From positions 3,162,001 to 3,226,000 of the forward strand of contig OZ193910.1 of the NCBI GenBank assembly GCA_964276515.1: 64,000 nt of DNA. Reading direction: 5' to 3'. The DNA comes from Gordius albopunctatus (lineage: Eukaryota). Positions 18,001 through 57,504 of this stretch are shown here, piece after piece; the stretch's first letter is position 1, and each line of letters starts with the position of its first letter. The notes under the pieces are model-generated. The model was not told the origin of the DNA. It saw only the letters and a program-made list of their open reading frames with translations, and searched no databases. The position numbers and the translations under genes are program-made.

Positions 18001-21000
18001 CTTCATTTCCTTGCTGATTTATAAAAAAGAAATTTGAAATATATAGCAAATATTATATTTATAATTTTGTTAATATTTATAAAATAGTAGAATTACCATT
18101 TCTATCAACGTGTTTTCTCCTTTCAAAAATAAATTAATCTTTTCTTCGTTTCCTTGCTGATTTATAAAAAAGAAATTTGAAATATATAGCAAATATTATA
18201 TTTATAATTTTGTTAATATTTATAAAATAGTAGAATTACCATTGCTATCAACGTGTTTTCTCCTTTCAAAAATAAATCAATCTCTTCTTCATTTCCTTGC
18301 TGATTTATAAAAAAGAAATTTGAAATATATAGCAAATAATATATTTATAATTTTGTTAATATTTATAAAATAGTAGAATTACCATTCTAATCAACGTGTT
18401 TTCTCCTTTCAAAAATAAATTAATCTTTTCTTCGTTTCCTTGCTGATTTATAAAAAAGAAATTTGAAATATATAGCAAATATTATATTTATAATTTTGTT
18501 AATATTTATAAAATAGTAGAATTACCATTCTAATCAACGTGTTTTCTCCTTTCAAAAATAAATTAATCTTTTCTTCGTTTCCTTGCTGATTTATAAAAAA
18601 GAAATTTGAAATATATAGCAAATATTATATTTATAATTTTGTTAATATTTATAAAATAGTAGAATTACCATTCTAATCAACGTGTTTTCTCCTTTCAAAA
18701 ATAAATTAATCTTTTCTTCGTTTCCTTGCTGATTTATAAAAAAGAAATTTGAAATATATAGTAAATATTATATTTATAATTTTGTTAATATTTATAAAAT
18801 AGTAGAATTACCATTGCTATCAACGTGTTTTCTCCTTTCAAAAATAAATTAATCTTTTCTTCATTTCCTTGCTGATTTATAAAAAAGAAATTTGAAATAT
18901 ATAGCAAATATTATATTTATAATTTTGTTAATATTTATAAAATAGTAGAATTACCATTGCTATCAACGTGTTTTCTCCTTTCAAAAATAAATTAATCTTT
19001 TCTTCATTTCCTTGCTGATTTATAAAAAAGAAATTTGAAATATATAGTAAATATTATATTTATAATTTTGTTAATATTTATAAAATAGTAGAATTACCAT
19101 TGCTATCAACGTGTTTTCTCCTTTCAAAAATAAATTAATCTTTTCTTCATTTCCTTGCTGATTTATAAAAAAGAAATTTGAAATATATAGCAAATATTAT
19201 ATTTATAATTTTGTTAATATTTATAAAATAGTAGAATTACCATTGCTATCAACGTGTTTTCTCCTTTCAAAAATAAATCAATCTTTTCTTCATTTCCTTG
19301 CTGATTTATAAAAAAGAAATTTGAAATATATAGCAAATATTATATTTATAATTTTGTTAATATTTATAAAATAGTAGAATTACCATTGATATCAACGTGT
19401 TTTCTCCTTTCAAAAATAAATCAATCTCTTCTTCATTTCCTTGCTGATTTATAAAAAAGAAATTTGAAATATATAGCAAATATTATATTTATAATTTTGT
19501 TAATATTTATAAAATAGTAGAATTACCATTGCTATCAACGTGTTTTCTCCTTTCAAAAATAAATCAATCTCTTCTTTATTTCCTTGCTGATTTATAAAAA
19601 AGAAATTTGAAATATATAGTAAATATTATATTTATAATTTTGTTAATATTTATAAAATAGTAGAATTACCATTGCTATCAACGTGTTTTCTCCTTTCAAA
19701 AATAAATCAATCTCTTCTTTATTTCCTTGCTGATTTATAAAAAAGAAATTTGAAATATATAGTAAATATTATATTTATAATTTTGTTAATATTTATAAAA
19801 TAGTAGAATTACCATTGCTATCAACGTGTTTTCTCCTTTCAAAAATAAATTAATCTTTTCTTCATTTCCTTGCTGATTTATAAAAAAGAAATTTGAAATA
19901 TATAGTAAATATTATATTTATAATTTTGTTAATATTTATAAAATAGTAGAATTACCATTGCTATCAACGTGTTTTCTCCTTTCAAAAATAAATCAATCTC
20001 TTCTTCATTTCCTTGCTGATTTATAAAAAAGAAATTTGAAATATATAGTAAATATTATATTTATAATTTTGTTAATATTTATGAAATAGTAGAATTACCA
20101 TTGCTATCAACGTGTTTTCTCCTTTCAAAAATAAATTAATCTTTTCTTCATTTCCTTGCTGATTTATAAAAAAGAAATTTGAAATATATAGCAAATATTA
20201 TATTTATAATTTTGTTAATATTTATAAAATAGTAGAATTACCATTGCTATCAACGTGTTTTCTCCTTTCAAAAATAAATCAATCTCTTCTTCATTTCCTT
20301 GCTGATTTATAAAAAAGAAATTTGAAATATATAGCAAATATTATATTTATAATTTTGTTAATATTTATAAAATAGTAGAATTACCATTCTAATCAACGTG
20401 TTGTCTCCTTTCAAAAATAAATTAATCTTTTCTTCATTTCCTTGCTGATTTATAAAAAAGAAAATTGAAATATATAGCAAATATTATATTTATAATTTTG
20501 TTAATATTTACAAAATAGTAGAATTACCATTCTAATCAACGTTTTTTCTCCTTTCAAAAATAAATTAATCTCTTCTTCGTTTCCTTGCTGATTTAAAATA
20601 AAAAATAAATTTGAAATATATAGCAAATATTATATTTATAATTTTGTTAATATTTATAAAATAGTAGAATTACCATTGCTATCAACGTGTTTTCTCCTTT
20701 CAAAAATAAATCAATCTTTTCTTCATTTCCTTGCTGATTTATAAAAAAGAAATTTGAAATATATAGCAAATATTATATTTATAATTTTGTTAATATTTAT
20801 AAAATAGTAGAATTACCATTTCTATCAACGTGTTTTCTCCTTTCAAAAATAAATCAATCTCTTCTTCATTTCCTTGCTGATTTATAAAAAAGAAATTTGA
20901 AATATATAGTAAATATTATATTTATAATTTTGTTAATATTTATAAAATAGTAGAATTACCATTGCTATCAACGTGTTTTCTCCTTTCAAAAATAAATTAA

Positions 21001-24000
21001 TCTTTTCTTCATTTCCTTGCTGATTTATAAAAAAGAAATTTGAAATATATAGCAAATATTATATTTATAATTTTGTTAATATTTATAAAATAGTAGAATT
21101 ACCATTGCTATCAACGTGTTTTCTCCTTTCAAAAATAAATTAATCTTTTCTTCATTTCCTTGCTGATTTATAAAAAAGAAATTTGAAATATATAGCAAAT
21201 ATTATATTTATAATTTTGTTAATATTTATAAAATAGTAGAATTACCATTGCTATCAACGTGTTTTCTCCTTTCAAAAATAAATCAATCTCTTCTTCATTT
21301 CCTTGCTGATTTATAAAAAAGAAATTTGAAATATATAGCAAATATTATATTTATAATTTTGTTAATATTTATAAAATAGTAGAATTACCATTGCTATCAA
21401 CGTGTTTTCTCCTTTCAAAAATAAATCAATCTCTTCTTCATTTCCTTGCTGATTTATAAAAAAGAAATTTGAAATATATAGTAAATATTATATTTATAAT
21501 TTTGTTAATATTTATAAAATAGTAGAATTACCATTGCTATCAACGTGTTTTCTCCTTTCAAAAACAAATTAATCTTTTCTTCGTTTCCTTGCTGATTTAT
21601 AAAAAAGAAATTTGAAATATATAGTAAATATTATATTTATAATTTTGTTAATATTTATAAAATAGTAGAATTACCATTGCTATCAACGTGTTTTCTCCTT
21701 TCAAAAATAAATTAATCTTTTCTTCATTTCCTTGCTGATTTATAAAAAAGAAATTTGAAATATATAGCAAATATTATATTTATAATTTTGTTAATATTTA
21801 TAAAATAGTAGAATTACCATTGCTATCAACGTGTTTTCTCCTTTCAAAAATAAATCAATCTCTTCTTCATTTCCTTGCTGATTTATAAAAAAGAAATTTG
21901 AAATATATAGCAAATATTATATTTATAATTTTGTTAATATTTATAAAATAGTAGAATTACCATTGCTATCAACGTGTTTTCTCCTTTCAAAAATAAATCA
22001 ATCTCTTCTTCATTTCCTTGCTGATTTATAAAAAAGAAATTTGAAATATATAGTAAATATTATATTTATAATTTTGTTAATATTTATAAAATAGTAGAAT
22101 TACCATTGCTATCAACGTGTTTTCTCCTTTCAAAAACAAATTAATCTTTTCTTCGTTTCCTTGCTGATTTATAAAAAAGAAATTTGAAATATATAGTAAA
22201 TATTATATTTATAATTTTGTTAATATTTATAAAATAGTAGAATTACCATTGCTATCAACGTGTTTTCTCCTTTCAAAAATAAATTAATCTTTTCTTCATT
22301 TCCTTGCTGATTTATAAAAAAGAAATTTGAAATATATAGCAAATATTATATTTATAATTTTGTTAATATTTATAAAATAGTAGAATTACCATTGCTATCA
22401 ACGTGTTTTCTCCTTTCAAAAATAAATCAATCTCTTCTTCATTTCCTTGCTGATTTATAAAAAAGAAATTTGAAATATATAGTAAATATTATATTTATAA
22501 TTTTGTTAATATTTATAAAATAGTAGAATTACCATTGCTATCAACGTGTTTTCTCCTTTCAAAAATAAATTAATCTTTTCTTCATTTCCTTGCTGATTTA
22601 TAAAAAAGAAATTTGAAATATATAGTAAATATTATATTTATAATTTTGTTAATATTTATAAAATAGTAGAATTACCATTCTAATCAACGTGTTTTCTCCT
22701 TTCAAAAATAAATTAATCTTTTCTTCGTTTCCTTGCTGATTTATAAAAAAGAAATTTGAAATATATAGCAAATATTATATTTATAATTTTGTTAATATTT
22801 ATAAAATAGTAGAATTACCATTTCTATCAACGTGTTTTCTCCTTTCAAAAATAAATTAATCTTTTCTTCGTTTCCTTGCTGATTTATAAAAAAGAAATTT
22901 GAAATATATAGCAAATATTATATTTATAATTTTGTTAATATTTATAAAATAGTAGAATTACCATTGCTATCAACGTGTTTTCTCCTTTCAAAAATAAATT
23001 AATCTTTTCTTCATTTCCTTGCTGATTTATAAAAAAGAAATTTGAAATATATAGCAAATATTATATTTATAATTTTGTTAATATTTATAAAATAGTAGAA
23101 TTACCATTCTAATCAACGTGTTTTCTCCTTTCAAAAATAAATTAATCTTTTCTTCGTTTCCTTGCTGATTTATAAAAAAGAAATTTGAAATATATAGCAA
23201 ATATTATATTTATAATTTTGTTAATATTTATAAAATAGTAGAATTACCATTCTAATCAACGTGTTTTCTCCTTTCAAAAATAAATTAATCTTTTCTTCGT
23301 TTCCTTGCTGATTTATAAAAAAGAAATTTGAAATATATAGCAAATATTATATTTATAATTTTGTTAATATTTATAAAATAGTAGAATTACCATTGCTATC
23401 AACGTGTTTTCTCCTTTCAAAAATAAATCAATCTCTTCTTCATTTCCTTGCTGATTTATAAAAAAGAAATTTGAAATATATAGCAAATAATATATTTATA
23501 ATTTTGTTAATATTTATAAAATAGTAGAATTACCATTCTAATCAACGTGTTTTCTCCTTTCAAAAATAAATTAATCTTTTCTTCGTTTCCTTGCTGATTT
23601 ATAAAAAAGAAATTTGAAATATATAGCAAATATTATATTTATAATTTTGTTAATATTTATAAAATAGTAGAATTACCATTCTAATCAACGTGTTTTCTCC
23701 TTTCAAAAATAAATTAATCTTTTCTTCGTTTCCTTGCTGATTTATAAAAAAGAAATTTGAAATATATAGCAAATATTATATTTATAATTTTGTTAATATT
23801 TATAAAATAGTAGAATTACCATTCTAATCAACGTGTTTTCTCCTTTCAAAAATAAATTAATCTTTTCTTCGTTTCCTTGCTGATTTATAAAAAAGAAATT
23901 TGAAATATATAGCAAATATTATATTTATAATTTTGTTAATATTTATAAAATAGTAGAATAACCATTCTAATCAACGTGTTTTCTCCTTTCAAAAATAAAT

Positions 24001-27000
24001 TAATCTTTTCTTCGTTTCCTTGCTGATTTATAAAAAAGAAATTTGAAATATATAGTAAATATTATATTTATAATTTTGTTAATATTTATAAAATAGTAGA
24101 ATTACCATTGCTATCAACGTGTTTTCTCCTTTCAAAAATAAATTAATCTTTTCTTCATTTCCTTGCTGATTTATAAAAAAGAAATTTGAAATATATAGCA
24201 AATATTATATTTATAATTTTGTTAATATTTATAAAATAGTAGAATTACCATTGCTATCAACGTGTTTTCTCCTTTCAAAAATAAATTAATCTTTTCTTCA
24301 TTTCCTTGCTGATTTATAAAAAAGAAATTTGAAATATATAGCAAATATTATATTTATAATTTTGTTAATATTTATAAAATAGTAGAATTACCATTGCTAT
24401 CAACGTGTTTTCTCCTTTCAAAAATAAATCAATCTTTTCTTCATTTCCTTGCTGATTTATAAAAAAGAAATTTGAAATATATAGCAAATATTATATTTAT
24501 AATTTTGTTAATATTTATAAAATAGTAGAATTACCATTGATATCAACGTGTTTTCTCCTTTCAAAAATAAATCAATCTCTTCTTCATTTCCTTGCTGATT
24601 TATAAAAAAGAAATTTGAAATATATAGCAAATATTATATTTATAATTTTGTTAATATTTATAAAATAGTAGAATTACCATTGCTATCAACGTGTTTTCTC
24701 CTTTCAAAAATAAATCAATCTCTTCTTCATTTCCTTGCTGATTTATAAAAAAGAAATTTGAAATATATAGTAAATATTATATTTATAATTTTGTTAATAT
24801 TTATGAAATAGTAGAATTACCATTGCTATCAACGTGTTTTCTCCTTTCAAAAATAAATTAATCTTTTCTTCATTTCCTTGCTGATTTATAAAAAAGAAAT
24901 TTGAAATATATAGCAAATATTATATTTATAATTTTGTTAATATTTATAAAATAGTAGAATTACCATTGCTATCAACGTGTTTTCTCCTTTCAAAAATAAA
25001 TCAATCTCTTCTTCATTTCCTTGCTGATTTATAAAAAAGAAATTTGAAATATATAGCAAATATTATATTTATAATTTTGTTAATATTTATAAAATAGTAG
25101 AATTACCATTCTAATCAACGTGTTTTCTCCTTTCAAAAATAAATTAATCTTTTCTTCATTTCCTTGCTGATTTATAAAAAAGAAAATTGAAATATATAGC
25201 AAATATTATATTTATAATTTTGTTAATATTTACAAAATAGTAGAATTACCATTCTAATCAACGTTTTTTCTCCTTTCAAAAATAAATTAATCTCTTCTTC
25301 GTTTCCTTGCTGATTTAAAATAAAAAATAAATTTGAAATATATAGCAAATATTATATTTATAATTTTGTTAATATTTATAAAATAGTAGAATTACCATTC
25401 TAATCAACGTTTTTTCCCCTTTCAAAAATAAATTAATCTCTTCTTCGTTTCCTTGCTGATTTATAAAAAAGAAAATTGAAATATATAGCAAATATTATAT
25501 TTATAATTTTGTTAATATTTATAAAATAGTAGAATTACCATTGCTATCAACGTGTTTTCTCCTTTCAAAAATAAATCAATCTTTTCTTCATTTCCTTGCT
25601 GATTTATAAAAAAGAAATTTGAAATATATAGCAAATATTATATTTATAATTTTGTTAATATTTATAAAATAGTAGAATTACCATTGCTATCAACGTGTTT
25701 TCTCCTTTCAAAAATAAATCAATCTCTTCTTCATTTCCTTGCTGATTTATAAAAAAGAAATTTGAAATATATAGTAAATATTATATTTATAATTTTGTTA
25801 ATATTTATAAAATAGTAGAATTACCATTGCTATCAACGTGTTTTCTCCTTTCAAAAATAAATTAATCTTTTCTTCATTTCCTTGCTGATTTATAAAAAAG
25901 AAATTTGAAATATATAGCAAATATTATATTTATAATTTTGTTAATATTTATAAAATAGTAGAATTACCATTGCTATCAACGTGTTTTCTCCTTTCAAAAA
26001 CAAATTAATCTTTTCTTCATTTCCTTGCTGATTTATAAAAAAGAAATTTGAAATATATATCAAATATTATATTTATAATTTTGTTAATATTTATAAAATA
26101 GTAGAATTACCATTGCTATCAACGTGTTTTCTCCTTTCAAAAATAAATTAATCTTTTCTTCATTTCCTTGCTGATTTATAAAAAAGAAATTTGAAATATA
26201 TAGCAAATATTATATTTATAATTTTGTTAATATTTATAAAATAGTAGAATTACCATTGCTATCAACGTGTTTTCTCCTTTCAAAAATAAATTAATCTTTT
26301 CTTCATTTCCTTGCTGATTTATAAAAAAGAAATTTGAAATATATATCAAATATTATATTTATAATTTTGTTAATATTTATAAAATAGTAGAATTACCATT
26401 GCTATCAACGTGTTTTCTCCTTTCAAAAATAAATTAATCTTTTCTTCATTTCCTTGCTGATTTATAAAAAAGAAATTTGAAATATATAGCAAATATTATA
26501 TTTATAATTTTGTTAATATTTATAAAATAGTAGAATTACCATTGCTATCAACGTGTTTTCTCCTTTCAAAAATAAATTAATCTTTTCTTCATTTCCTTGC
26601 TGATTTATAAAAAAGAAATTTGAAATATATATCAAATATTATATTTATAATTTTGTTAATATTTATAAAATAGTAGAATTACCATTGCTATCAACGTGTT
26701 TTCTCCTTTCAAAAATAAATTAATCTTTTCTTCATTTCCTTGCTGATTTATAAAAAAGAAATTTGAAATATATAGCAAATATTATATTTATAATTTTGTT
26801 AATATTTATAAAATAGTAGAATTACCATTGCTATCAACGTGTTTTCTCCTTTCAAAAATAAATCAATCTCTTCTTCATTTCCTTGCTGATTTATAAAAAA
26901 GAAAATTGAAATATATAGCAAATATTATATTTATAATTTTGTTAATATTTATAAAATAGTAGAATTACCATTGCTATCAACGTGTTTTCTCCTTTCAAAA

Positions 27001-30000
27001 ATAAATCAATCTCTTCTTCATTTCCTTGCTGATTTATAAAAAAGAAATTTGAAATATATAGTAAATATTATATTTATAATTTTGTTAATATTTATAAAAT
27101 AGTAGAATTACCATTGCTATCAACGTGTTTTCTCCTTTCAAAAATAAATTAATCTTTTCTTCATTTCCTTGCTGATTTATAAAAAAGAAATTTGAAATAT
27201 ATAGCAAATATTATATTTATAATTTTGTTAATATTTATAAAATAGTAGAATTACCATTGCTATCAACGTGTTTTCTCCTTTCAAAAATAAATTAATCTTT
27301 TCTTCATTTCCTTGCTGATTTATAAAAAAGAAATTTGAAATATATAGCAAATATTATATTTATAATTTTGTTAATATTTATAAAATAGTAGAATTACCAT
27401 TGCTATCAACGTGTTTTCTCCTTTCAAAAATAAATCAATCTCTTCTTCATTTCCTTGCTGATTTATAAAAAAGAAATTTGAAATATATAGCAAATATTAT
27501 ATTTATAATTTTGTTAATATTTATAAAATAGTAGAATTACCATTGCTATCAACGTGTTTTCTCCTTTCAAAAATAAATCAATCTCTTCTTCATTTCCTTG
27601 CTGATTTATAAAAAAGAAATTTGAAATATATAGTAAATATTATATTTATAATTTTGTTAATATTTATAAAATAGTAGAATTACCATTGCTATCAACGTGT
27701 TTTCTCCTTTCAAAAACAAATTAATCTTTTCTTCGTTTCCTTGCTGATTTATAAAAAAGAAATTTGAAATATATAGTAAATATTATATTTATAATTTTGT
27801 TAATATTTATAAAATAGTAGAATTACCATTGCTATCAACGTGTTTTCTCCTTTCAAAAATAAATTAATCTTTTCTTCATTTCCTTGCTGATTTATAAAAA
27901 AGAAATTTGAAATATATAGCAAATATTATATTTATAATTTTGTTAATATTTATAAAATAGTAGAATTACCATTCTAATCAACGTGTTTTCTCCTTTCAAA
28001 AATAAATTAATCTTTTCTTCGTTTCCTTGCTGATTTATAAAAAAGAAATTTGAAATATATAGCAAATATTATATTTATAATTTTGTTAATATTTATAAAA
28101 TAGTAGAATTACCATTTCTATCAACGTGTTTTCTCCTTTCAAAAATAAATTAATCTTTTCTTCGTTTCCTTGCTGATTTATAAAAAAGAAATTTGAAATA
28201 TATAGCAAATATTATATTTATAATTTTGTTAATATTTATAAAATAGTAGAATTACCATTGCTATCAACGTGTTTTCTCCTTTCAAAAATAAATTAATCTT
28301 TTCTTCATTTCCTTGCTGATTTATAAAAAAGAAATTTGAAATATATAGCAAATATTATATTTATAATTTTGTTAATATTTATAAAATAGTAGAATTACCA
28401 TTGCTATCAACGTGTTTTCTCCTTTCAAAAATAAATCAATCTCTTCTTCATTTCCTTGCTGATTTATAAAAAAGAAATTTGAAATATATAGCAAATAATA
28501 TATTTATAATTTTGTTAATATTTATAAAATAGTAGAATTACCATTCTAATCAACGTGTTTTCTCCTTTCAAAAATAAATTAATCTTTTCTTCGTTTCCTT
28601 GCTGATTTATAAAAAAGAAATTTGAAATATATAGCAAATATTATATTTATAATTTTGTTAATATTTATAAAATAGTAGAATTACCATTCTAATCAACGTG
28701 TTTTCTCCTTTCAAAAATAAATTAATCTTTTCTTCGTTTCCTTGCTGATTTATAAAAAAGAAATTTGAAATATATAGCAAATATTATATTTATAATTTTG
28801 TTAATATTTATAAAATAGTAGAATTACCATTCTAATCAACGTGTTTTCTCCTTTCAAAAATAAATTAATCTTTTCTTCGTTTCCTTGCTGATTTATAAAA
28901 AAGAAATTTGAAATATATAGCAAATATTATATTTATAATTTTGTTAATATTTATAAAATAGTAGAATTACCATTCTAATCAACGTGTTTTCTCCTTTCAA
29001 AAATAAATTAATCTTTTCTTCGTTTCCTTGCTGATTTATAAAAAAGAAATTTGAAATATATAGTAAATATTATATTTATAATTTTGTTAATATTTATAAA
29101 ATAGTAGAATTACCATTGCTATCAACGTGTTTTCTCCTTTCAAAAATAAATTAATCTTTTCTTCATTTCCTTGCTGATTTATAAAAAAGAAATTTGAAAT
29201 ATATAGCAAATATTATATTTATAATTTTGTTAATATTTATAAAATAGTAGAATTACCATTGCTATCAACGTGTTTTCTCCTTTCAAAAATAAATTAATCT
29301 TTTCTTCATTTCCTTGCTGATTTATAAAAAAGAAATTTGAAATATATAGTAAATATTATATTTATAATTTTGTTAATATTTATAAAATAGTAGAATTACC
29401 ATTGCTATCAACGTGTTTTCTCCTTTCAAAAATAAATTAATCTTTTCTTCATTTCCTTGCTGATTTATAAAAAAGAAATTTGAAATATATAGCAAATATT
29501 ATATTTATAATTTTGTTAATATTTATAAAATAGTAGAATTACCATTGCTATCAACGTGTTTTCTCCTTTCAAAAATAAATCAATCTTTTCTTCATTTCCT
29601 TGCTGATTTATAAAAAAGAAATTTGAAATATATAGCAAATATTATATTTATAATTTTGTTAATATTTATAAAATAGTAGAATTACCATTGATATCAACGT
29701 GTTTTCTCCTTTCAAAAATAAATCAATCTCTTCTTCATTTCCTTGCTGATTTATAAAAAAGAAATTTGAAATATATAGCAAATATTATATTTATAATTTT
29801 GTTAATATTTATAAAATAGTAGAATTACCATTGCTATCAACGTGTTTTCTCCTTTCAAAAATAAATCAATCTCTTCTTCATTTCCTTGCTGATTTATAAA
29901 AAAGAAATTTGAAATATATAGTAAATATTATATTTATAATTTTGTTAATATTTATGAAATAGTAGAATTACCATTGCTATCAACGTGTTTTCTCCTTTCA

Positions 30001-33000
30001 AAAATAAATTAATCTTTTCTTCATTTCCTTGCTGATTTATAAAAAAGAAATTTGAAATATATAGCAAATATTATATTTATAATTTTGTTAATATTTATAA
30101 AATAGTAGAATTACCATTGCTATCAACGTGTTTTCTCCTTTCAAAAATAAATCAATCTCTTCTTCATTTCCTTGCTGATTTATAAAAAAGAAATTTGAAA
30201 TATATAGCAAATATTATATTTATAATTTTGTTAATATTTATAAAATAGTAGAATTACCATTCTAATCAACGTGTTTTCTCCTTTCAAAAATAAATTAATC
30301 TTTTCTTCATTTCCTTGCTGATTTATAAAAAAGAAAATTGAAATATATAGCAAATATTATATTTATAATTTTGTTAATATTTACAAAATAGTAGAATTAC
30401 CATTCTAATCAACGTTTTTTCTCCTTTCAAAAATAAATTAATCTCTTCTTCGTTTCCTTGCTGATTTAAAATAAAAAATAAATTTGAAATATATAGCAAA
30501 TATTATATTTATAATTTTGTTAATATTTATAAAATAGTAGAATTACCATTCTAATCAACGTTTTTTCCCCTTTCAAAAATAAATTAATCTCTTCTTCGTT
30601 TCCTTGCTGATTTATAAAAAAGAAAATTGAAATATATAGCAAATATTATATTTATAATTTTGTTAATATTTATAAAATAGTAGAATTACCATTGCTATCA
30701 ACGTGTTTTCTCCTTTCAAAAATAAATCAATCTTTTCTTCATTTCCTTGCTGATTTATAAAAAAGAAATTTGAAATATATAGCAAATATTATATTTATAA
30801 TTTTGTTAATATTTATAAAATAGTAGAATTACCATTCTAATCAACGTTTTTTCCCCTTTCAAAAATAAATTAATCTCTTCTTCATTTCCTTGCTGATTTA
30901 TAAAAAAGAAATTTGAAATATATAGTAAATATTATATTTATAATTTTGTTAATATTTATAAAATAGTAGAATTACCATTGCTATCAACGTGTTTTCTCCT
31001 TTCAAAAATAAATTAATCTTTTCTTCATTTCCTTGCTGATTTATAAAAAAGAAATTTGAAATATATAGCAAATATTATATTTATAATTTTGTTAATATTT
31101 ATAAAATAGTAGAATTACCATTGCTATCAACGTGTTTTCTCCTTTCAAAAATAAATCAATCTCTTCTTCATTTCCTTGCTGATTTATAAAAAAGAAATTT
31201 GAAATATATAGCAAATATTATATTTATAATTTTGTTAATATTTATAAAATAGTAGAATTACCATTCGAATCAACGTTTTTTCTCCTTTCAAAAATAAATT
31301 AATCTTTTCTTCATTTCCTTGCTGATTTATAAAAAAGAAATTTGAAATATATAGCAAATATTATATTTATAATTTTGTTAATATTTATAAAATAGTAGAG
31401 TTACCATTGCTATCAACGTGTTTTCTCCTTTCAAAAATAAATTAATCTTTTCTTCATTTCCTTGCTGATTTATAAAAAAGAAATTTGAAATATATAGCAA
31501 ATATTATATTTATAATTTTGTTAATATTTATAAAATAGTAGAATTACCATTGCTATCAACGTGTTTTCTCCTTTCAAAAATAAATTAATCTTTTCTTCAT
31601 TTCCTTGCTGATTTATAAAAAAGAAATTTGAAATATATAGCAAATATTATATTTATAATTTTGTTAATATTTATAAAATAGTAGAATTACCATTCTAATC
31701 AACGTGTTTTCTCCTTTCAAAAATAAATTAATCTTTTCTTCATTTCCTTGCTGATTTATAAAAAAGAAAATTGAAATATATAGCAAATATTATATTTATA
31801 ATTTTGTTAATATTTACAAAATAGTAGAATTACCATTCTAATCAACGTTTTTTCTCCTTTCAAAAATAAATTAATCTCTTCTTCGTTTCCTTGCTGATTT
31901 AAAATAAAAAATAAATTTGAAATATATAGCAAATATTATATTTATAATTTTGTTAATATTTATAAAATAGTAGAATTACCATTCTAATCAACGTTTTTTC
32001 CCCTTTCAAAAATAAATTAATCTCTTCTTCGTTTCCTTGCTGATTTATAAAAAAGAAAATTGAAATATATAGCAAATATTATATTTATAATTTTGTTAAT
32101 ATTTATAAAATAGTAGAATTACCATTGTAATCAACGTTTTTTCCCCTTTCAAAAATAAATTAATCTCTTCTTCGTTTCCTTGCTGATTTATAAAAAAGAA
32201 ATTTGAAATATATAGCAAATATTATATTTATAATTTTGTTAATATTTATAAAATAGTAGAATTACCATTGCTATCAACGTGTTTTCTCCTTTCAAAAATA
32301 AATCAATCTCTTCTTCATTTCCTTGCTGATTTATAAAAAAGAAATTTGAAATATATAGTAAATATTATATTTATAATTTTGTTAATATTTATAAAATAGT
32401 AGAATTACCATTCTAATCAACGTTTTTTCTCCTTTCAAAAATAAATTAATCTTTTCTTCATTTCCTTGCTGATTTATAAAAAAGAAATTTGAAATATATA
32501 GCAAATATTATATTTATAATTTTGTTAATATTTATAAAATAGTAGAGTTACCATTGCTATCAACGTGTTTTCTCCTTTCAAAAATAAATTAATCTTTTCT
32601 TCATTTCCTTGCTGATTTATAAAAAAGAAATTTGAAATATATAGCAAATATTATATTTATAATTTTGTTAATATTTATAAAATAGTAGAATTACCATTGC
32701 TATCAACGTGTTTTCTCCTTTCAAAAATAAATTAATCTTTTCTTCATTTCCTTGCTGATTTATAAAAAAGAAATTTGAAATATATAGCAAATATTATATT
32801 TATAATTTTGTTAATATTTATAAAATAGTAGAATTACCATTCTAATCAACGTGTTTTCTCCTTTCAAAAATAAATTAATCTTTTCTTCATTTCCTTGCTG
32901 ATTTATAAAAAAGAAATTTGAAATATATAGCAAATATTATATTTATAATTTTGTTAATATTTACAAAATAGTAGAATTACCATTCTAATCAACGTTTTTT

Positions 33001-34772
33001 CTCCTTTCAAAAATAAATTAATCTCTTCTTCGTTTCCTTGCTGATTTAAAATAAAAAATAAATTTGAAATATATAGCAAATATTATATTTATAATTTTGT
33101 TAATATTTATAAAATAGTAGAATTACCATTCTAATCAACGTTTTTTCTCCTTTCAAAAATAAATTAATCTCTTCTTCGTTTCCTTGCTGATTTAAAATAA
33201 AAAATAAATTTGAAATATATAGTAAATATTATATTTATAATTTTGTTAATATTTACAAAATAGTCGAATTACCATTCTAATCAACGTTTTTTCTCCTTTC
33301 AAAAATAAATTAATCTCTTCTTCGTTTCCTTGCTGATTTAAAATAAAAAATAAATTTGAAATATATAGTAAATATTATATTTATAATTTTGTTAATATTT
33401 ATAAAATAGTAGAATTACCATTGTAAAAACGTTTTTTCTCCTTTCAAAAATAAATTAATCTCTTCGTTTCCTTGCTGATTTAAAATAAAAAAGAAAATTG
33501 AAATATATAGCAAATATTATATTTATAATTTTGTTAATATTTATAAAATAGTAGAATTACCATTGTAATCAACGTGTTTTCTCCTTTCAAAAATATATTA
33601 ATCTTTTCTTCGTTTCCTTGCTGATTTATAAAAGAGAAATTTGAAATATATAGCAAATATTATATTTATAATTTTGTTAATATTTATAAAATAGTAGAAT
33701 TACCATTCTAATCAACGTTTTTTCCCCTTTCAAAAATATATTAATCTTTTCTTCGTTTCCTTGCTGATTTATAAAAGAGAAATTTGAAATATATAGCAAA
33801 TATTATATTTATAATTTTGTTAATATTTATAAAATAGTAGAATTACCATTCTAATCAACGTTTTTTCCCCTTTCAAAAATATATTAATCTTTTCTTCGTT
33901 TCCTTGCTGATTTATAAAAGAGAAATTTGAAATATATAGCAAATATTATATTTATAATTTTGTTAATATTTATAAAATAGTAGAATTACCATTCTAATCA
34001 ACGTTTTTTCCCCTTTCAAAAATAAATTCATCTCTTCCTTGTTTCCTTGCTGATTTAAAATAAAAAATAAATTTGAAATATATAGCAAATATTATATTTA
34101 TAATTTTGTTAATATTTATAAAGTAGTAGAATTACCATTCTAATCAACGTTTTTTCTCCTTTCAAAAATAAATTAATCTCTTCCTTGTTTCCTTGCTGAT
34201 TTAAAATAAAAAAGAAATTTGAAATATATAGTAAATATTATATTTATAATTTTGTTAATATTTATAAAATAGTAGAATTACCATTCTAATCAACGTTTTT
34301 TCCCCTTTCAAAAATAAATTAATCTCTTCCTTGTTTCCTTGCTGATTTAAAATAAAAAATAAATTTGAAATATATAGCAAATATTATATTTATAATTTTG
34401 TTAATATTTATAAAATAGTAGAATTACCATTTTAATCAACGTTTTTTCCCCTTTCAAAAATAAATTAATCTCTTCTTCGTTTCCTTGCTGATTTAAAATA
34501 AAAAAGAAATTTGAAATATATAGTAAATATTATATTTATAATTTTGTTAATATTTATAAAATAGTAGAATTACCATTGTAAAAACGTTTTTTCTCCTTTC
34601 AAAAATAAATTAATCTCTTCGTTTCCTTGCTGATTTAAAATAAAAAAGAAATTTGAAATATATAGCAAATATTATATTTATAATTTTGTTAATATTTATA
34701 AAATAGTAGAATTACCATTGTAATCAACGTGTTTTCTCCTTTCAAAAATAAATTAATCTCTTCTTTGCTTCT
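3050..34772 (-). repeat. 143-bp tandem array, ~220 copies; unit = 60-nt exon-like segment + 83-nt GT-AG intron-like segment
   Basis: caacg occurs at 3181, 3324, 3467, giving period 143; copy number is from length/period. Example unit: exon 3231-3172 (caa gga aac ... gca atg) and intron 3314-3232 (gtaattc...ttttttataaatcag). The array itself is certain; the exon/intron reading is inferred. Confidence 0.97.
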
Positions 34773-35071
34773 TTTAAAATTATACATTAATATTTTTACG
34801 AAAGTCTTGATTTTAAATATATATATACATTTTGAAATAATTTTTGTTAATAATTGAAGGGGTCACTTTTCCTAAAGACTTTGTTACTTTATAATATTTT
34901 TGTTATACCATTTATCGAATCCTAACATTTTAACCGACATTTCCAAATGCAACAGCCTTGCTTGGATCGTCCCTTAGGAGCATCCCTATTTTTCTTTGTA
35001 ACAATATTTGCTTTTTCATGATTCTAATTTATGTCAAAATAAACAACGATGTTTCAATCTATGCGTAGATA

Positions 35072-35657
35072 ATAGCATGTAAAGTTATTGAATTTAGGTA
35101 TAAAGGATAACTTTATATAACAACAATGAATATTCATCAAAAAAATCGGAACCAATACTTACGGAGTTGTTATTTCTGTAGGGAAACACCACATTGTTAT
35201 AAATTGCTTCTATTCTTTCGCGATATTTTATATGTTTGTCCGATATGTAGCCCTTCTCCATTAGAGACCTTTCACTGCTAGTTTGTGAAGGGGCAATTAA
35301 GCGTGATTTTCGCAAGGGGCGACTTGGAAACTTGATCGAATCGGTGTTATTTAGCTGTATTTTATAGCATGTAAAGTTCTTGAATTTAGGTATAAAGGAT
35401 AACTTTATATAACAACAATGAATATTCATCAAAAAAATCGGAACCAATACTTACGTAGTTGTTATTTCTGTAGGGAAACACCACATTGTTATAAATTGCT
35501 TCTATTCTTTCGCGATATTTTATATGTTTGTCCGATATGTAGCCCTTCTCCATTAGAGACCTTTCACTGCTAGTTTGTGAAGGGGCAATTAAGCGTGATT
35601 TTCGCAAGGGGCGACTTGGAAACTTGATGGAATCAGTGTTATTTAGCTGTATTTTAT
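35072..35657 (-). repeat. 292-bp tandem duplication covering the 3' end of the large exon and its splice donor
   Basis: 35072-35365 is nearly identical to 35364-35657. This explains why the 117-aa ORF repeats KIQLNNTDS...YKVILYT. Confidence 0.95.
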
Positions 35658-36825
35658 CGCATATGATGCTTTCAACATCATGATTCTCTTCGTTTGAATC
35701 ACTGTTTATCACTTGTGTGTTCCCTATGTTTTCGCCACTTCGTTTTTCTACAACTCTTTTAGTTTCTTCTAAGCCAGCATAATTCGTTTCAAGTGTCGCC
35801 ACCTTCGAAATGGTAGGTTGTGGGGGCCATGCGCTATCCAAATGAGCGCCCAGTATTGGCAGTAACTTGGGATAGTCTCGAGCATAGCCTTTTCCAATCT
35901 GTTTAGGAGCAGGATCATTCGCCCCTTTATTCCCTTTCTCCTGACTATATTTATCCAATGTTTTATCTCGTTCAATCATGTTATTATTAATTAGGGGTTT
36001 GGAGTTGATGGCGTCTACAATTATTTCTTCCACGACTGGATTGTTGAGGGCAGCACCTGGTTTGAGCAATTCGTCGTACATTTCAAATCCAACTCTATTA
36101 TGTTTACTCATTTTGGCATCACACTTCTTTTGATATTCCTTTTCATCCTCATCTTTCCACTTTACCAATTCATTTACTGCCTTTCTCGGGTCTTTATCAC
36201 TTTCTTTACCATTTTTACCTTGATAGACTGTGGAATTCTTTGCAGCATCCTCATCTACTTCAAATATATCATTATTTTTAGTTAGGTCGCTCTCGGCATC
36301 ATTTCTTGCCTCATGATCGTTATTTGGATTCCATTTATTTTCTGAATTTTCCTTAAATCTTTTTCCTATTTCCTGGGTTTCTTCCATGGCGATATCGTAT
36401 TCTCCGACATGTTCCCCTATCGTATTGCCGCATTCATTTGATTCAGCCATTAGATCTGGCTTCGAATCCTGCCATCTGTCATTTTTTATAATTATCTCCT
36501 TCTTTAACATAAAATTCCCGTCAATCACGTCATTGTCATTGTTATCCAACATTCCACAATATTTATCAGAATCACTCCTTCCAGGCTGCTCTTCTTCATT
36601 TGTCATTTTTCTTTTCCTTGTTAAATTTATGTCATGCAAGAATCTTGATATCTTATTCAAACGCCCATTCTTATTACTTTTTCTATCAGCTTTTTCTTTG
36701 CCATCCCTCCTATTCCCCCCAAAATTATTTTCTTCCTCCTCTTTAGCTTTCGCTCTCGCATATGAGGACCCATCATCACTCTTTTTTAAATTTCTGCATT
36801 TAAGCAATTTACAAAAGTCAAACAT
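35404..36825 (-). CDS. Large first exon of an uncharacterised gene; charged low-complexity (K/E/N/D-rich) protein
   Basis: 479-codon ORF in very AT-rich DNA. A likely phase-0 donor AAA|gttatc lies at 35403, just before the ORF stop. No recognisable domain. Confidence 0.7.
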
Positions 36826-41821: not shown

Positions 41822-44275
41822 TCTTCTTCTTTATCAGTTATTTGGTCCCACATTGGTGGGGTTTGTTTTGATAAGTTTCTTCCATCTTGACCGGGTTAGT
41901 GCCATGCCTTGACGAATCTCTTTAGTTTCCATAACTTTATCGACTTGCCCTTTCCATGTGACACGGGGTCGTCCTCTTCCTCTCTTCCCCGGTATTTTCA
42001 TGTCTAGCACTTTTCGATTTACGTCATCCGGGTCCCTTCTTAGTATATGCCCATACCACCTTAGCCGATTTTCGTTAATCATGTCCGCCATAGGTTGAAT
42101 ACCCATTTTTGTCATGAGAAAGTCATTCGTCATATGGTCGAGCTTAGTATACCCCAAGCTCCACCCTATCATTCTCATCTCTGTGGCTTGTAATAGCTTT
42201 AATTCCGTGGTGTTTAATGCCCATGTTTCACTTCCATAGAGTAACACCGGTCTTACGATGGATTTTTAAGCTTTGATCTTCAACCATATAGGCATTTTCT
42301 TGTCGCACATTACACCGGATATACTTCGCCATTTAAGCCATCCTTTTTGGATCCGGGCATCGACTTCCGTTGCGCAACCTCCCTCTTGATGTAGCATCGA
42401 GCCGAGGTATGTGAACCTGTCTACTTTTGGGCACTTTAGATGGTCATCCAGCGATGGGGTGCCTGTACCGTTCATTTCCATGTATACCGTTTTTCTATCG
42501 TTGACCTTTAAACCATATTCAGCTAATCGCTTTGACCATTTTTCGGCTTCTTCGAATACTTTCTCTCTTGTTTACTCGCATAGTACTATATCATCGGCAT
42601 ATAGCATACACCATGGCGAAGGCTTTTGAACGTCCCTCGTTATCATGTCTATAATTATATTAAATAAAAATGGACTTAAAGCAGAGCCTTGATGTAATCC
42701 AATATTAACCCGAAAAGGTTTAGAGTCTCCAACTGTCGTCCTTCTTCACGACATCCGAGCAATGCTTCCATAGGTATTCCATCTGGACCATTTGCTTTTT
42801 CTTTTTGCATCTTGTTCATTTGTGTCCTAACTTCATCCTCCTGAAAGAGTTCGACCATACTTATATTTGGCTCAATTTCGGGAAGAGAATCCTTGTCATT
42901 TGCAATATTCATAAGTTTCTTAAAATATCCTTTCCACCTTTCCATTACCTCTTTTGGCTTGAATAAGGTTTGACCCTTTTCGCTTTTAACTATTTTAAGA
43001 ACTCCGACATCGCGACTTTTCTTCTCCCTTATCTTGGCCAATTTGTACATAAGCCTATTGCCCCCTTTATGATCCAGTTTGTTTGCCATCTCGGTGTACG
43101 CAGCATTCTTCGCTTTTGCAACGACATTTTTTGCGGCCCTCTTTGCGTCCCTGTACTCTTGATAATCCTCCGACTTTTTTGATTTATGCCACCGTCTATA
43201 TAGATTTTTCTTTAATTTGATGAAATCTTTTACCGATTGATCCCACCACCATAGTTCCCTATTCATAGCTTTGCCTCCTTTGGTCTGTCCTAGAACACAA
43301 ATCGCTGTTTCCTTAATGTCCTTAGATAGCGTTTCCCAATCTTTGTCTACGTCCCTTTGCAACTTCCTTGCACCCAAGAGTGAGGAGGCTTTTTGATGGT
43401 ATTCTTTGTTCGTCGATGTATCCTTTAGCCTTTCGTATCGAATTCGAGGTTCATATACCTTTCTTTTTTCAGGAAATACTCTTCTGTCAAGATCCATAAC
43501 AAGGGGACGATGTTGCCTGGCGATTTCTTCTCCCGGTATTACTTTGCAATCCTTGATACTCCATAAGTCCTTTCGCCGTATATGCAAATAGTCGATTTGA
43601 GTAAAATGCTTCCCACTTCTATAGGTCACAATATGATCTTCGCGCTTTTGAAAATAGGTGTTAACGATCGCCATGTCATATGCTAGGGATACTTGGAGCA
43701 GTTTTTCCCCTTCTTTGTTCTTCAGACCATGCCCATAGCCTCCATGATTGCGTTCATACCCGAGGCGATCTTTCCCAACGTGAGCGTTGAAATCTGCCCC
43801 AATAATTAGCCTTTCTTCCTGTCCTATTCCTTGTATTTCCTTTTCCAATGAATCGAAGAATATGTCTTTCTCTGATTCCAAACATCCAATTTGGGGGGGG
43901 GGACATACGCGCACATAATGGTTAGGAGGCCTCCTAGATCTGCAATCTTCACCCACATTAGCCTGTCGGAACAACGCTGGACTTCCACCACCTTGTCCTT
44001 GAACGATTCGCTTAGAACGATACCGACCCCGTTTCTACGATTTGATGACCCACTGTAGAAAGGCTTGTATCCTTCTCCTAAATCGCGAGCTTTCGTTCCG
44101 TTCTACCTCGTCTCTTGTAGGCAGGCGATGTGTACCTTTCTTCTTTTTAGCATCTGTGCGACCTCGATGCTCTTCCCCGTTAACGTTCCCACATTCCAGC
44201 ACGTAATTCGCATTCTTTTCACAACTAGTTTCCTTAACCGCCTTCGTTGTGAGTTAGGCAGTAACTCTAGTGTAT
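41822..44275 (-). mobile_element. RTE-clade LINE, decayed, with internal deletion
   Basis: APE motifs WNVGTL, CLQETR, IGADFNAHVG and TQIDY; RT motifs GLHQGSALSP and PWCMLYADD (~42590-42616); C-terminal LLYGSETW, RLRWYGH and GKRGRGRPR; (AAG)n tail at 41822-41831. Several frameshifts. Confidence 0.95.
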
Positions 44276-45410
44276 TTCAGAATTTATCCCTTTTTTAAAA
44301 CTAAAAGGAATTTTAGGAATCTGCAAAAGCTATTAATTTAAATATTATTTATTTAATTTAAATAGTTTGTCAAACCCCAATAATTTTGACCTTAGACTGT
44401 AACATTTTTATTATACCTTCAAATATCTAATTCGAGAAAACTTCAGCCTTGTATGTATGACGTCATTATTGTATATGCTGCTATAAATTAAACTGGCCGG
44501 GAAATGTCCGATATTTTTAAAACGAAAAGGTATTTTAGGAATCTGAAAAAGCTATTTTACCCCTGGCCGCCCTGGGAACCTACGGGTAAAGTTTCGAGCG
44601 AATTGGGCCGGTAGTTTCAGAATTTATCCCTTTTTTAAAACTAAAAGGAATTTTAGGATTCTGCAAAAGCTATTAATTTAAATTTTATTTATTTAATTTA
44701 AATAGTTGATTAAACCCTAATAATTTTGACCATAAACTGTTTATACTTTTAAATATCTAATTCGAGAAAACTTCAGCCTTTAATGTATGACGTCATTATT
44801 GTATATGCTGCTATAAATTAAACTGGCCGGGAAATGTCTTATATTTTTAAAATGAAAAGGTATTTTAGGAATCTGAAAAAGCTATTTTACCCCTGGCATT
44901 CCTGGGCATCTACGGCTAAATTTTTGAGCGAATTGGGCCGGTAGTTTCAGAATTTATCCCTTTTTTAAAACTAAAAGGAATTTTAGGATTCTGCAAAAGC
45001 TATTAATTTAAATTTTATTTATTTAATTTAAATAGTTGATTAAACCCCAATAATTTTGACCATATACTGTTTATACTTTTAAATATCTAATTCGGGAAAA
45101 CTTCAGCCTTTAATGTATGACGTCATTATTGTATATGCTGCTATAAATTAAACTGCCCGGGAAATGTCCGATATTTTTAAAATGAAAAGGTATTTTAGGA
45201 ATCTGAAAAAGCTATTTTACCCCTGGCATTCCTGGGCATCTACGGCTAAATTTTCGCGCGAATCGGGCGGGTAGTTTTAGAATTAAGCCATTTTTTAAAA
45301 CTAAAAGGAATTTTAGGATTCTGAAAAAGCTATTTTACCCCTGGCCGCCCTGGGAACCTACGTGTAAAGTTTCGCGCCAATCGGGCCCGTAGTTTCAGAA
45401 TTTAGCCCTT
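44275..45410 (+). repeat. ~331-340-bp tandem repeat (~3.4 units) with internal sub-repeats
   Basis: ttt(c/t)agaatt..ttttttaaaactaaaaggaattttagg recurs at ~44275, 44615, 44946 and 45277. Confidence 0.9.
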
Positions 45411-45597
45411 ACTTACACACATAAATAATTTTGTACTAGAACCCATCACTTGATACCTAAATTGCCTGCCAAAGCTAGCCAAAACCTTTTAATTGACCAA
45501 TTCACTAATGCCGTCCAAACAGCCAGGCAAAAATGACGATTTTAAATTTCAAGAATTTATTTTGTTTCAAAAATTTTTGATCTAATTCTAGATTTGT

Positions 45598-46768
45598 TTT
45601 TACTGTAAATTCACAAATAGCGACTAAATAAATTCTCTATATTTTTTCCCCTTAAATATCAAAGCCAGAACAAATATTACGCCAAAATAAAGTAAATAAA
45701 AATTAAAGAAAAGCCTATTAAGTCCGAATACTCTTGAGGTGCCCGCCTGACTATATACAAGCTGTCGGCAAGGCTCGGGGTTTTTTATGAGTCAAAGACG
45801 GCAATCGTATTTAACAAACATCTGTTACATAACTAATCCGACCAAATATTTATGTGGAATTCATGTTGAATTATTTAATTACATTTACCTTTAAATCTTA
45901 TAAAAAATTTTGCTAGCTAAAAAAATATGGATGTTAAAATAAATATATATTGCAGCCATTACATGCTTGAAAGCATGATTAGGGCTTAATAAATATACAA
46001 GTAATATTTGCCCCAAACCAAGCTTATTTGCTGGGTGCGAGCGATATATACATTGAAACGTTACATTTGATTGATATTATATTTTTCATTATAGATTTGA
46101 GAAATGATATTAATTCACTATATTAATGCTTAAAAATAAGCTCGGGTCGCAAATTGCCGGGCGCCATGTTTATGGCGTATATTAACATTTAATCCCTTTT
46201 AATTTTGTTATATAACTTATGAAGAAATAATTATTTAAGTTTCTCATTATTCCTTCTTCCATAGTGCATATTTATTAAGTCAATTAGATCACCATTTTGG
46301 ATGAGGTTTTTCAAAAATAAGGGACGAATTTTTTTTACTTACTAACAAAGATAAAGGCGATGAGGCTCCCAAAAAAATTTGTTCCGTTCGTGAAGCCCAG
46401 GTTTAAATTGCTACCCTTGGTTCAAAATGTCATAAACAAAGATGTTTTGAACGTTAAACTTTGGCAAGAATCTATGGCAAATCTTGAAGATGTTATTATA
46501 TTATTAACATTTTGAAAAAAATGACCATTGGCCAAATTTGTGATTCGAAATTTTTTTTTTCGTTTTTTTTTAAATTGGTTACCATTGATATTTACCCTAT
46601 GCCCGTCAGTCAAATTATTTTGCATTTAATACCCCCTATAGAGATTCTCGCCCATAAATTGCATAGCAAATATGCTACTTTTATACAGAGTATAGAAGAG
46701 TTCCCCCTTCCCTTCCCTTCCCCTACTCCCCTTCCCCTTACCACGAGGGCCGAAGGCCCGAGTTTTTT
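45598..46768 (+). mobile_element. Dispersed ~1.15-kb repeat, copy 2, with Helentron/HINE-like 3' end
   Basis: Direct repeat of 1122-2281. Ends in hairpin gggcc-gaa-ggccc followed by gagttttttt. Confidence 0.7.
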
Positions 46769-48033
46769 TAGTTTATAAAGATATATGTATGGTGTTTTTG
46801 TTATTAAAGGCAACTTTTTCCACCCTATCGATTGTTACCTTTGTGCATTTAAGTCAAATAAATAACCCATCCTTTAACATGTGGTTACAGTAGAAAAATG
46901 CAGCTTGCATGATTTCTACAAAATTATTTTTGTCCTGGTTTGTGATTCTTTGCCCCGAGTTCTTAAGGATGTTATAAACAATTTGATATACCACTTGACA
47001 TCACCTCACTCTCAGGTATTGTATTACACAATTTGTTTGGCGATTTCACTAAATACGGGTGATTTACTACGCTTACCTGACTTGATTAAAGATTCAAACA
47101 ATTGCTTTTGATTGTTCGATCACCTTGCAAATAAATAATCAAGATAGCTGAGGATGACAGTTTTCAAAATATAGATAATATAAGAAGTGATTAAGACTCC
47201 TCTGAAGTTTTAACGAGAGAAGTCAAGTATTTCAAGACTTTTTTATTACTATCGATATTTATTGGATATAGTGAGAAAGGCCAATAGTCTTAATCAAATT
47301 ATTGACAATGTTGATATAGAAGCAATTAGGAGAGGAAAATCGGGATTGCCATTAGAAGGTTTACAGGTATTTTACAAATTAAGATTACCAAGATATAATT
47401 AACAACCACCTCTTTGCTTTAAGAAGGCAAGCCTACCATTACCAACATATATATCTACAACATCTTTTACTTAATACTCATTCAATTTAGAAGACCCCAT
47501 TTAACCAAAATAGCTGATGATGATATATTGAATAACGATAGGAAAGTCAAATTAATCGCTTAATATCACTGGTCTACAAAAAAATAACCGGAAAACGTGC
47601 AACAGATTCCGATAGTTTTTTGTGGTGAACACAAATATTTTTTTCGTTTTTTCCCTATACGTCAAGTCTTTTAGATATTTCGATTCAAAGTTGAAAAAAT
47701 GACCGTTTTTGACCCTTTTCGATGCTCAATACAGCGATATTGAATGGCTAAAATTTTTTTTAAACCTCTAAGCGGTAGAACCAACTTAGGGTAAAACATT
47801 GAAAAATGATTTTTTCCCTATTGTTTTTACTTTTTAGGATATATCGAATTTGAATTAGTCCCTATGCGAAATCGCGGCATCCTTTGAGCCTCCCTCCCTC
47901 TCATCTAATTGGGTTTATAACACTATACTCTTGGTGCATGTGAGTGATTGATGGATGATGTTGGGGTGTAAGAGTAGTGCCGTAATACGAGCTATTCCTC
48001 TAGTAGAGCTAGAGAGGATGACAGGCGTAGCAG

Positions 48034-48228
48034 TAGAGTCGCTAACTTTCTTCAAACTCCAGACGCGAGCACGCACACTGAGTTGCTTAATATGCGCGTT
48101 AGCACAATATGCGCTCTCTGTTTGGTGCACTAGGTAGAACATTAGCATATAAAAATTCTCGAGGACCGAGTAGAAACTCGAGCAGATGGTAGCTGGAGTT
48201 GAAGAAAGTTAGCAATTTAACAACTCTA
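48034..48228. mobile_element. hAT-type MITE, copy 1
   Basis: TIR TAGAGT...ACTCTA with a small deletion in the left TIR. Perfect 8-bp TSD CGTAGCAG (48026-48033 / 48229-48236). Confidence 0.9.
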
Positions 48229-48310
48229 CGTAGCAGTAGGAATAGTTCGTATTAAGCCACTACTCTTGCACCCACCACACTCATCAATCACTTACATTAC
48301 ATGCAATAAG

Positions 48311-48513
48311 TAGAGTTGTTAAATTGCTAACTTGCTTCAAACTCCAGACGCGAGCACGCATACTGGGTTGCTTAATATGCGCGGTAGCACAATGTGTGCT
48401 CGCTGTTCGGTGCACTAAGCAGAGCAGTAGCATATAAAAATGCTCGAGGACCGAGCAGAAACTCGAGCAGATGGTAGCTGGAGTTGAAGAAAGTTAGCAA
48501 TTTAACAACTCTA
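48311..48513. mobile_element. hAT-type MITE, copy 2 (203 bp)
   Basis: TIR TAGAGTTGTTAAATTGCTAACTT. Perfect 8-bp TSD GCAATAAG (48303-48310 / 48514-48521). Confidence 0.92.
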
Positions 48514-56700: not shown

Positions 56701-57028
56701 GTTTGCAAGTGCACGGTGGCACACAACCTATGGCTTCGGATAGAGCTGTTGAAAAGAGAGGAGCTGTTCCGAAGAGTTTTAAGGTTGGTTGGAACAAAGC
56801 TGACGATAGTATGTGCATCAGACCGGATGAGAAAGGACTCTGTCTATGCATCGGTGGTCCAAATGATATTGATGAATGAGGTATCAGCAAAATCTTTTCC
56901 GAGCTATCATCCTCATTTCCCGTATGGTTAGTATTTTGTCCCGATACTGGCACTGCTTCTTGTAGCAACAAGAAAACCAGAAAAATGGTCACATCCATAC
57001 AGCAAATGCCTTTTAATCCAATAGCCAT
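53733..57028 (-). CDS. Single-pass type I leucine-rich-repeat membrane protein, 3 exons: join(57028-55015, 54937-54644, 54574-53733), 1049 aa
   Basis: Signal peptide, Cys cap CVPPCTC, many LxxLxLxxNxL repeats, and LRRCT FNPWHCDC formed across a 77-nt GT-AG intron (55014-54938). Second intron is 69 nt (54643-54575). TM helix ISIVLSTISIVLVAIVLAHTLI, then a Ser/Asn-rich tail. Exons sum to 3150 nt, in frame. Confidence 0.92.
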
Positions 57029-57504
57029 ATCAAACTTATTTTATCTGAATAATGTTAAATATACTTGTAGTTATTAATTCTTATTAATATAATTTAAGTG
57101 TTTAAAAGTGACAAGCTTTATTTGTAAGACTTAAAGATAAATAACATAATTCATTTAAATATAACATTAAATTTATTTGACGGACAACAAACAAAGAGAC
57201 TTTAATCGAGTCGTGTTTAACAACTGAATATAAAATATAGGTCATCATTATTATAATAGAGTTGTTGTGTAAGCGTCACTCTGAACACATCTAAACTTCA
57301 TGCCTCTTTAAATGTGCTAGGCTGTCATTTGGTACCGAAATACACCAAAAAATATGCTTGCAAAATCTTTTAAATCTTATCATATTAATGATCTTAAAAT
57401 CAATAATTAAACATAAACGGGTTGTAAAAATTTAAATGTTATTGAATTGTATACAATCGACATATTAATAGTGATGTTGATTTTCTCGAGTGAGCATTGC
57501 TCAG

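Follow-up and report, generated by a model that had tools for sequence, protein, structure and literature searches.

Satellite DNA poses an old problem, for the sequence from which a satellite came is usually unrecognisable once the array is long. The window studied here, by which we mean the whole stretch of 64,000 nucleotides that was analysed, holds an array of some 220 units, each of which reads as a small exon followed by a small intron, and it therefore raises two questions: from what the unit was made, and whether the array is a gene for a repetitive protein.

The array (3069..34765) has a period of 143 bp, or 146 bp where the intron is 86 nt long, and amounts to about 222 units (221.6 periods, 97% matches) in a block of ~32 kb; like every part of the array and of its host gene described below, it is read on the minus strand. 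Once splice-like sites had been located through fuzzy junction motifs, it parsed into 220 exon-like intervals (216 of 60 nt, two of 56 and two of 58), 221 intron-like intervals, all of them GT..AG (207 of 83 nt and 14 of 86 nt), and a donor-less 57-nt piece at 4432-4375. These boundaries are predictions made from the letters throughout the array. The first-pass annotation had seen a ~220-fold multiplication of one intron here, and its letters, coordinates and copy number agree with our count. Introns of 83-86 nt are normal in this setting, since a leucine-rich-repeat (LRR) gene in the same window (53733..57040, minus strand), with a likely membrane segment, has two introns of 77 and 69 nt whose ends are T-rich with AAG and whose removal would join open frames.

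The array is not an assembly artefact, as four observations indicate: the words of 34630-36900 are found in two runs, X1 and X2, at shares of 0.81 and 0.76; both array-flank junctions are spanned by X1 and X2 contigs without other letters; in these runs the unit has a summed contig depth hundreds of times greater than that of the flanks; and the tandem unit also occurs in X3, a run from another study. Either X1 or X2 may be the window's own source, and both were treated as DNA, with introns covered and no splice joints. Within the array, 86-nt introns occur at indices 0-4, 8-11, 19, 29, 65, 98 and 220 of 221, while the middle is filled with the 83-nt form, and the 86-nt form, present at both ends, is likely the ancestral one. 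Blocks of 8-19 units have been duplicated at lags of 16, 19, 35, 36, 72 and 88, and the array introns are ~99% identical to each other.

The flanks place the array within a candidate gene. Its long coding exon X (35455..36793) ends at a strong donor, GTAAGT at 35454. A second duplication in the same gene, 292 bp repeated twice with 98% identity (35072..35662), comprises an exon tail and an intron head, and its joint is found in both X1 and X2. Then come a candidate exon U (34935..35023), 89 nt long up to an uncertain donor at 34934, with read-through stopping 14 nt later and with a counterpart in a diverged sister copy, and a candidate upstream intron (34771..34934), which measures 164 nt if this weak donor is used. 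From 34770 the right flank reads ag|A AGC AAA GAA GAG ATT, the beginning of the 55-nt interval (34716..34770, behind an outer acceptor AG at 34772-34771) that the first-pass annotation took for an exon A. It is followed by the first intron copy (34630..34715, 86 nt, GTAATT..TCAG) and by the first internal unit exon (34574..34629), of 56 nt. At the opposite end, the last intron copy (3086..3171), also of 86 nt, carries private edge variants and is overlapped by an X1 contig without other letters at 2810-3109; it leads into the terminal exon B (3038..3085), where the left flank reads ag|QGNEKELAKQTNVNY* from 3085. An AATAAA lies at 3027-3022, which is weak evidence of a gene end in flanks where this motif occurs 1.9 times per kb per strand.

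Sister copies of this locus, found in the same two runs, may speak to its state before the array. Two X1 contigs, among the loose ends listed, track the array intron and its donor and then depart from the window at 3175. Their loose letters, read by hand, run through 19 bases of exon into the acceptor of 34772-34771, here longer by one base; the added base is also seen as an insertion behind 34775 at a depth of 495. With the four matched bases the sister exon is 23 nt long. Its first 7 nt are identical to 34770-34764, and four of the last 16 do not match 34731-34716; behind it come the same donor and 64 nt of similar intron, all of this being known from short contigs. The copy in X2 has diverged further: its exon, which follows a similar upstream intron and ends at the same donor, measures 21 nt, a length that does not keep the frame of the 23-nt form. 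Four further loose ends, at 3104, 3118, 3148 and 3153, were set aside as likely chance matches of AT-rich sequence, at 80% likeness.

The ends of the array are in register with each other, and its acceptor, donor and intron recur in the X1 sister copy, so that birth in place is well supported. The contig signal running on from it into unlike sequence is at most 1% (0, 0.01, 0 and 0, 0 across comparisons), and the earlier proposal of a satellite born inside a gene by an intron-spanning duplication holds well, as does its prediction of an intron at this position in homologues, now seen as the donor and intron stretch of the X1 copy. The idea that collapsing the array would restore an ancestral arrangement of exon A, intron and exon B is not supported as regards the 55-nt exon A, since the sister exons are 23 and 21 nt long and the 55-nt form holds a duplicated acceptor.

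That duplicated acceptor is the key to the anatomy of the unit. Inside the 55-nt interval, which seems to be a derived composite, a 23-nt microexon A (34716..34738) sits behind an inner acceptor (AG at 34740-34739) and would be the equivalent of the ancestral exon. Ahead of it and into its first bases run 32 extra bases (34732..34763) that the X1 sister copy does not have, 26 of which copy the upstream acceptor region and exon A's first 7 nt. Indeed, 34757-34732 aligns with 34791-34764, that is, with those 7 nt and the 21 nt of upstream intron that precede them, at a score of 31. No control window drawn from the non-array part of the window reached this score (0 of 64,426, the best being 28; 0 of 19,352 among AT-rich ones). 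The right edge, previously read as unique sequence running straight into the unit, is thus itself a copy of the acceptor region, and the end of the upstream intron is the apparent source of the inner acceptor of every unit. This acceptor is present in 220 of 220 units, 23 nt from the donor in 218 of them and 22 nt in two; the acceptor of the X2 copy resembles it. The unit exon corresponds without gaps to positions 1-12 of B followed by positions 8-55 of the flank exon, and a composite built from flank pieces alone (B head, upstream intron end and A) aligned end to end with the four units tried. From the acceptor copy, this alignment and the inner acceptor in every unit, it follows that the unit is made of the head of B, an intron end with its own AG, the whole 23-nt microexon and the intron. 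The present flank differs from the X1 copy at one place in ~50 nt and the unit at 10 in 80 (P 0.05), and by this comparison the unit may be older than the present flank.

How such a unit formed is a question to which we offer an answer with only slightly more confidence than doubt: the satellite formed at its present site, out of the gene's last two small exons, in two duplication steps, and lies mostly behind a stop codon. The ancestor would have had exon U, an intron, the 23-nt microexon A, an 86-nt intron and the terminal exon B. In a first step, a tandem duplication of ~32-34 bp would have doubled the acceptor and first bases of A, an event that would leave the product unchanged as long as the inner acceptor was used. 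In a second step, a 146-bp duplication with breaks in the head of B and in the duplicated acceptor region, at an imperfect, A-rich microhomology, would have produced B head, intron end with AG, whole microexon and intron in a single segment. The AAAGAA/GAA microhomology suggested by the first-pass annotation does not serve for this join, as it predicts an exon of 63 or 57 nt against the 60 nt of 216 of the 220 units. An exon of 60 nt requires an overlap of AA or AAGA, joining B to the copied acceptor at ATTA yields 59 nt, and only the two 56-nt units come near the GAA register. Unequal exchange, which we put forward as the mechanism behind a pattern that is itself plain, would then have multiplied and homogenised the unit to ~222 copies; the 83-nt intron variant would have taken over the middle of the array in this process, the 86-nt form surviving at both ends.

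The main rival, which we hold to be unlikely though worth keeping in mind, does with one duplication what we attribute to two. A single 146-bp duplication, with breaks at an ATTA in B and an ATTA in the upstream intron, would have made the unit, and a later deletion of ~110 bp at the edge would have brought the opening 7 nt of the original A up against the middle of a unit, giving the 55-nt edge exon. Both B and the upstream intron do have ATTA after an A-run, the sum of B head, intron end and 23-nt A predicts ~59-61 nt, and the six bases before ATTA in the edge type are, by hand comparison, nearer to B than to the upstream intron. However, the deletion must land exactly where identity to B ends, at unit position 13, an endpoint that the two-step route gives for free while being able to yield the same unit.

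With U spliced at the weak donor 34934, the 23-nt A leads into B read as RKRKRISKAN* (its stop ending at 3051), and the 55-nt A leads into the frame chosen by the first-pass annotation, in which B reads in phase 0 to the stop of its QGNEKELAKQTNVNY* reading. This latter frame is coherent across U (phase 2), the 55-nt A, the 60-nt units and B, but it is not preserved through the array as had been claimed, because the first internal exon (34629-34574) has 56 nt and the protein would stop in the second unit. That exon is not a one-off error, since an identical copy recurs at 33474-33419, within a block copy (550/564 identical). Nor is there support for the preserved frame as the ancestral or the working one: a 23-nt exon A puts B in another frame, in which every unit stops early, with a stop in the unit head in 220/220 units and one within the microexon in 75/220, and in which the first unit ends RKRRD*. 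We modelled the donors in or after U at five of the seven GT sites, those with at least 4/9 consensus matches (the other two have at most 3/9); with four of the five the protein would be terminated no later than the first base of A, and one carries the frame into A. The alternative acceptor at 35060-35059 would end the protein 9 codons later. Most of the array therefore probably lies behind a stop codon, on the evidence of these reading frames, and does not encode a giant repeat protein. In the ancestral-type frame the first unit would supply a near-native basic tail and a stop, and growth of the array was likely cheap and tolerated, since the protein would be complete before or within the first unit.

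One small feature of the unit concerns this same frame. Positions 54-56 of the unit exon (for instance 32844-32842) are three adjacent bases that co-vary in at least seven combinations and form one codon of the ancestral-type frame, the one that is a stop in 75 units; the two common combinations could be related by a deletion and an insertion of one base each.

A second rival takes the array to be a working repeat-exon gene, which would use the outer acceptor, join 60-nt exons in phase 0, leave out broken units and yield a protein whose 20-aa repeats vary in number, as in silk. We consider this quite unlikely. Nearly all exons (216/220) are 60 nt long and stop-free, all introns are GT..AG and of normal length for the genome, the frame continues from U through the 55-nt exon to B, and per-site diversity is 0.056 for the exon and 0.009 for the intron, the latter measured over the 207 copies of 83 nt. 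No single open frame runs through the repeated exons, however, as four of the 220 are frameshifted, the first one included, and one unit is without a donor; about a third of the 'exon' is an intron-derived acceptor, and each unit contains a competing inner acceptor, the use of which shifts the frame. The 20-aa peptide shows no sign of selection: among 18 derived alleles in the 216 full exons, a sample of low power, 4-5 are synonymous against an expected 19% (P 0.25-0.46) and none is a stop, which has a probability of 0.29 by chance, so that both the synonymous share and the avoidance of stops fit neutrality. Positive selection as a cause of the higher exon diversity was likewise rejected, as this diversity comes from about six common variants, and the variable columns are similar in number in exon (15/60) and intron (14/83; P 0.29). 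Chance would nevertheless give a 60-nt exon free of stops in a given frame with a probability of only ~0.10 (from shuffles) x 1/3 = 0.03, for which reason an early phase of translation is possible, a figure to be read with the fact that the boundaries of U were chosen among several options. A long shot of the same kind, and one that we would not expect to be borne out, is that the gene is alive and transcribed through the 32 kb, carrying 221 near-identical introns with two competing acceptors per unit and switching between a short basic tail and a tail of 20-aa repeats of variable length.

The last rival, a pre-existing dispersed satellite inserted here with exon-like flanks that are decayed edge units, or else an error of assembly, is highly improbable: in its favour the upstream intron is weakly like the unit's intron, but the sister gene copies share the order of acceptor, microexon, donor and intron, the contigs hardly run on into unlike sequence, no second copy of the array was found in the rest of the window among the matches listed, and the clean contigs over both junctions and the tandem unit of X3 argue against an artefact.

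The origin in place that we favour has relatives among known cases of intron multiplication. The creation of introns has been distinguished from the multiplication of a pre-existing intron by tandem duplication in the available text of one source (PMC4974935), which cites Arabidopsis TOUCH3 (Knowles and McLysaght, 2006) and the study of Gao and Lynch (2009) for the latter. As TOUCH3 is presented there, the duplicated segment comprises an entire intron together with exon sequence at either end, and because the same is true of our array, where all 221 GT..AG copies lie between the A microexon and the B head, the intron has in both been propagated rather than created. TOUCH3 differs, on that description, in having two duplications in one gene where the array has ~222 homogenised copies over 32 kb, and the array unit also holds the acceptor end of a second intron, its copies being probably untranslated. 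The MaSp2 and flagelliform silk genes of Argiope have iterated, homogenised introns with a mean identity of 97.6% within a gene (PMC9779670, in the part available). There, as in our array with its ~99%, near-identical small introns alternate with similar exons, and the array introns are as a set homogenised within the gene. Silk repeats as described in that source encode a working protein, in contrast to an array whose frame breaks in the first unit without sign of peptide selection, and whose 'exon', unlike theirs, is partly derived from an intron. The Rogers model, with the potato RdRp gene as a case, explains intron gain by tandem genomic duplication (PMC4974935, in the portion available). 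In the likeness of this model as outlined there, a duplication supplies splice sites, and the upstream 292-bp duplication could recruit an exonic AG at 35356-35355 as a candidate acceptor, which would give an in-frame 192-nt exon (35354-35163). The array does not follow the model so described, as its 143-bp unit copies an old intron that also lies behind the exon in the sister copies and none is new around AGGT. Intron multiplication by internal duplication is thus already known, and what is unusual here is the scale and the traceable parents. The literature that we covered, an incomplete set, offered no case of a satellite with hundreds of exon-intron units whose parent exons had been identified.

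Locus-specific satellites under concerted evolution typically have AT-rich, head-to-tail units near nucleosome length, block duplications and older variants at their ends. The array has such properties: it is long, head-to-tail and homogenised, with block duplications and divergent ends. It is unlike an ordinary satellite in that an identified part of the flanking gene accounts for each segment of its unit, and in that near-ancestral sister copies exist. In Schistosoma, micro-exon genes have runs of symmetric micro-exons whose lengths are divisible by three, and skipping of these varies the protein; the microexon of the array, in contrast, measures 23 nt (22 in two units).

The interest of the locus is that the pieces of the unit map to a neighbouring gene, that the same species has near-ancestral sister copies and that the ends hold older variants, which makes the order of events testable. 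It also suggests that an array may grow within a gene, as the duplication likely left a stop codon ahead of the array. For annotation it is a caution, as 220 clean repeats of a 60-nt exon and a GT-AG intron need not mean a gene for a repeat protein. Should the 23-nt sister copy of X1 prove to be an allele of this locus that lacks the array, the origin of a satellite out of a gene would still be segregating, with the ancestor in hand.

The host itself is an orphan, lineage-specific, multi-copy gene. No homologues of exon X, searched as 445 codons, were found by word-based searches among 5,292 candidates of 244-779 aa and 7,986 of 780-2,225 aa, and there was no match among 1.84 billion representatives, in Pfam or in an Atlas feature search. 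That it is multi-copy is suggested by contigs with other letters or loose ends over exon U, over exon A and over the end of the 292-bp exon; the depth ratios of X1 and X2 over eight contig spans are 2.2-5.8, depth not being a copy number. At an X1 loose end at 35162, a sister copy retains the intron and donor, while the preceding exon bases, compared by hand, are unlike those of the window, though with open codons in the same phase; in this gene family, exon sequence seems to change more quickly than the intron beside it. The 3' end of the host gene has been duplicated internally at least twice. The weak likeness of the upstream intron to the unit's intron falls at 34810-34855 (77% over 48 nt, E 0.18), and this segment, which has a stretch resembling the 21-nt exon of the X2 copy, may be the decayed remnant of an earlier duplication of this kind.

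The only match of the LRR protein mentioned above is an unnamed protein of Gordionus, another horsehair worm, at 38% identity. The Gordionus genome has a GC content of ~27%, according to the accessible part of its description (10.1101/2023.06.26.546503). Repeats occur elsewhere in the window too: a 330-bp sequence repeated 3.2 times in tandem with a 118-bp tail (44275..45407), a dispersed 1.2-kb repeat of 94% identity (1115..2302 and 45590..46789) and a 330-bp inverted pair (47582..48862). Three offset ORFs on the minus strand (41834..44034), with a weak Pfam match to Exo_endo_phos_2 (E 0.053), look like a broken non-LTR retrotransposon. At 2708-2839, both X1 and X2 carry an alternative version that replaces 2737-2784 at a depth similar to that of the window's form, likely a polymorphism just beyond exon B.
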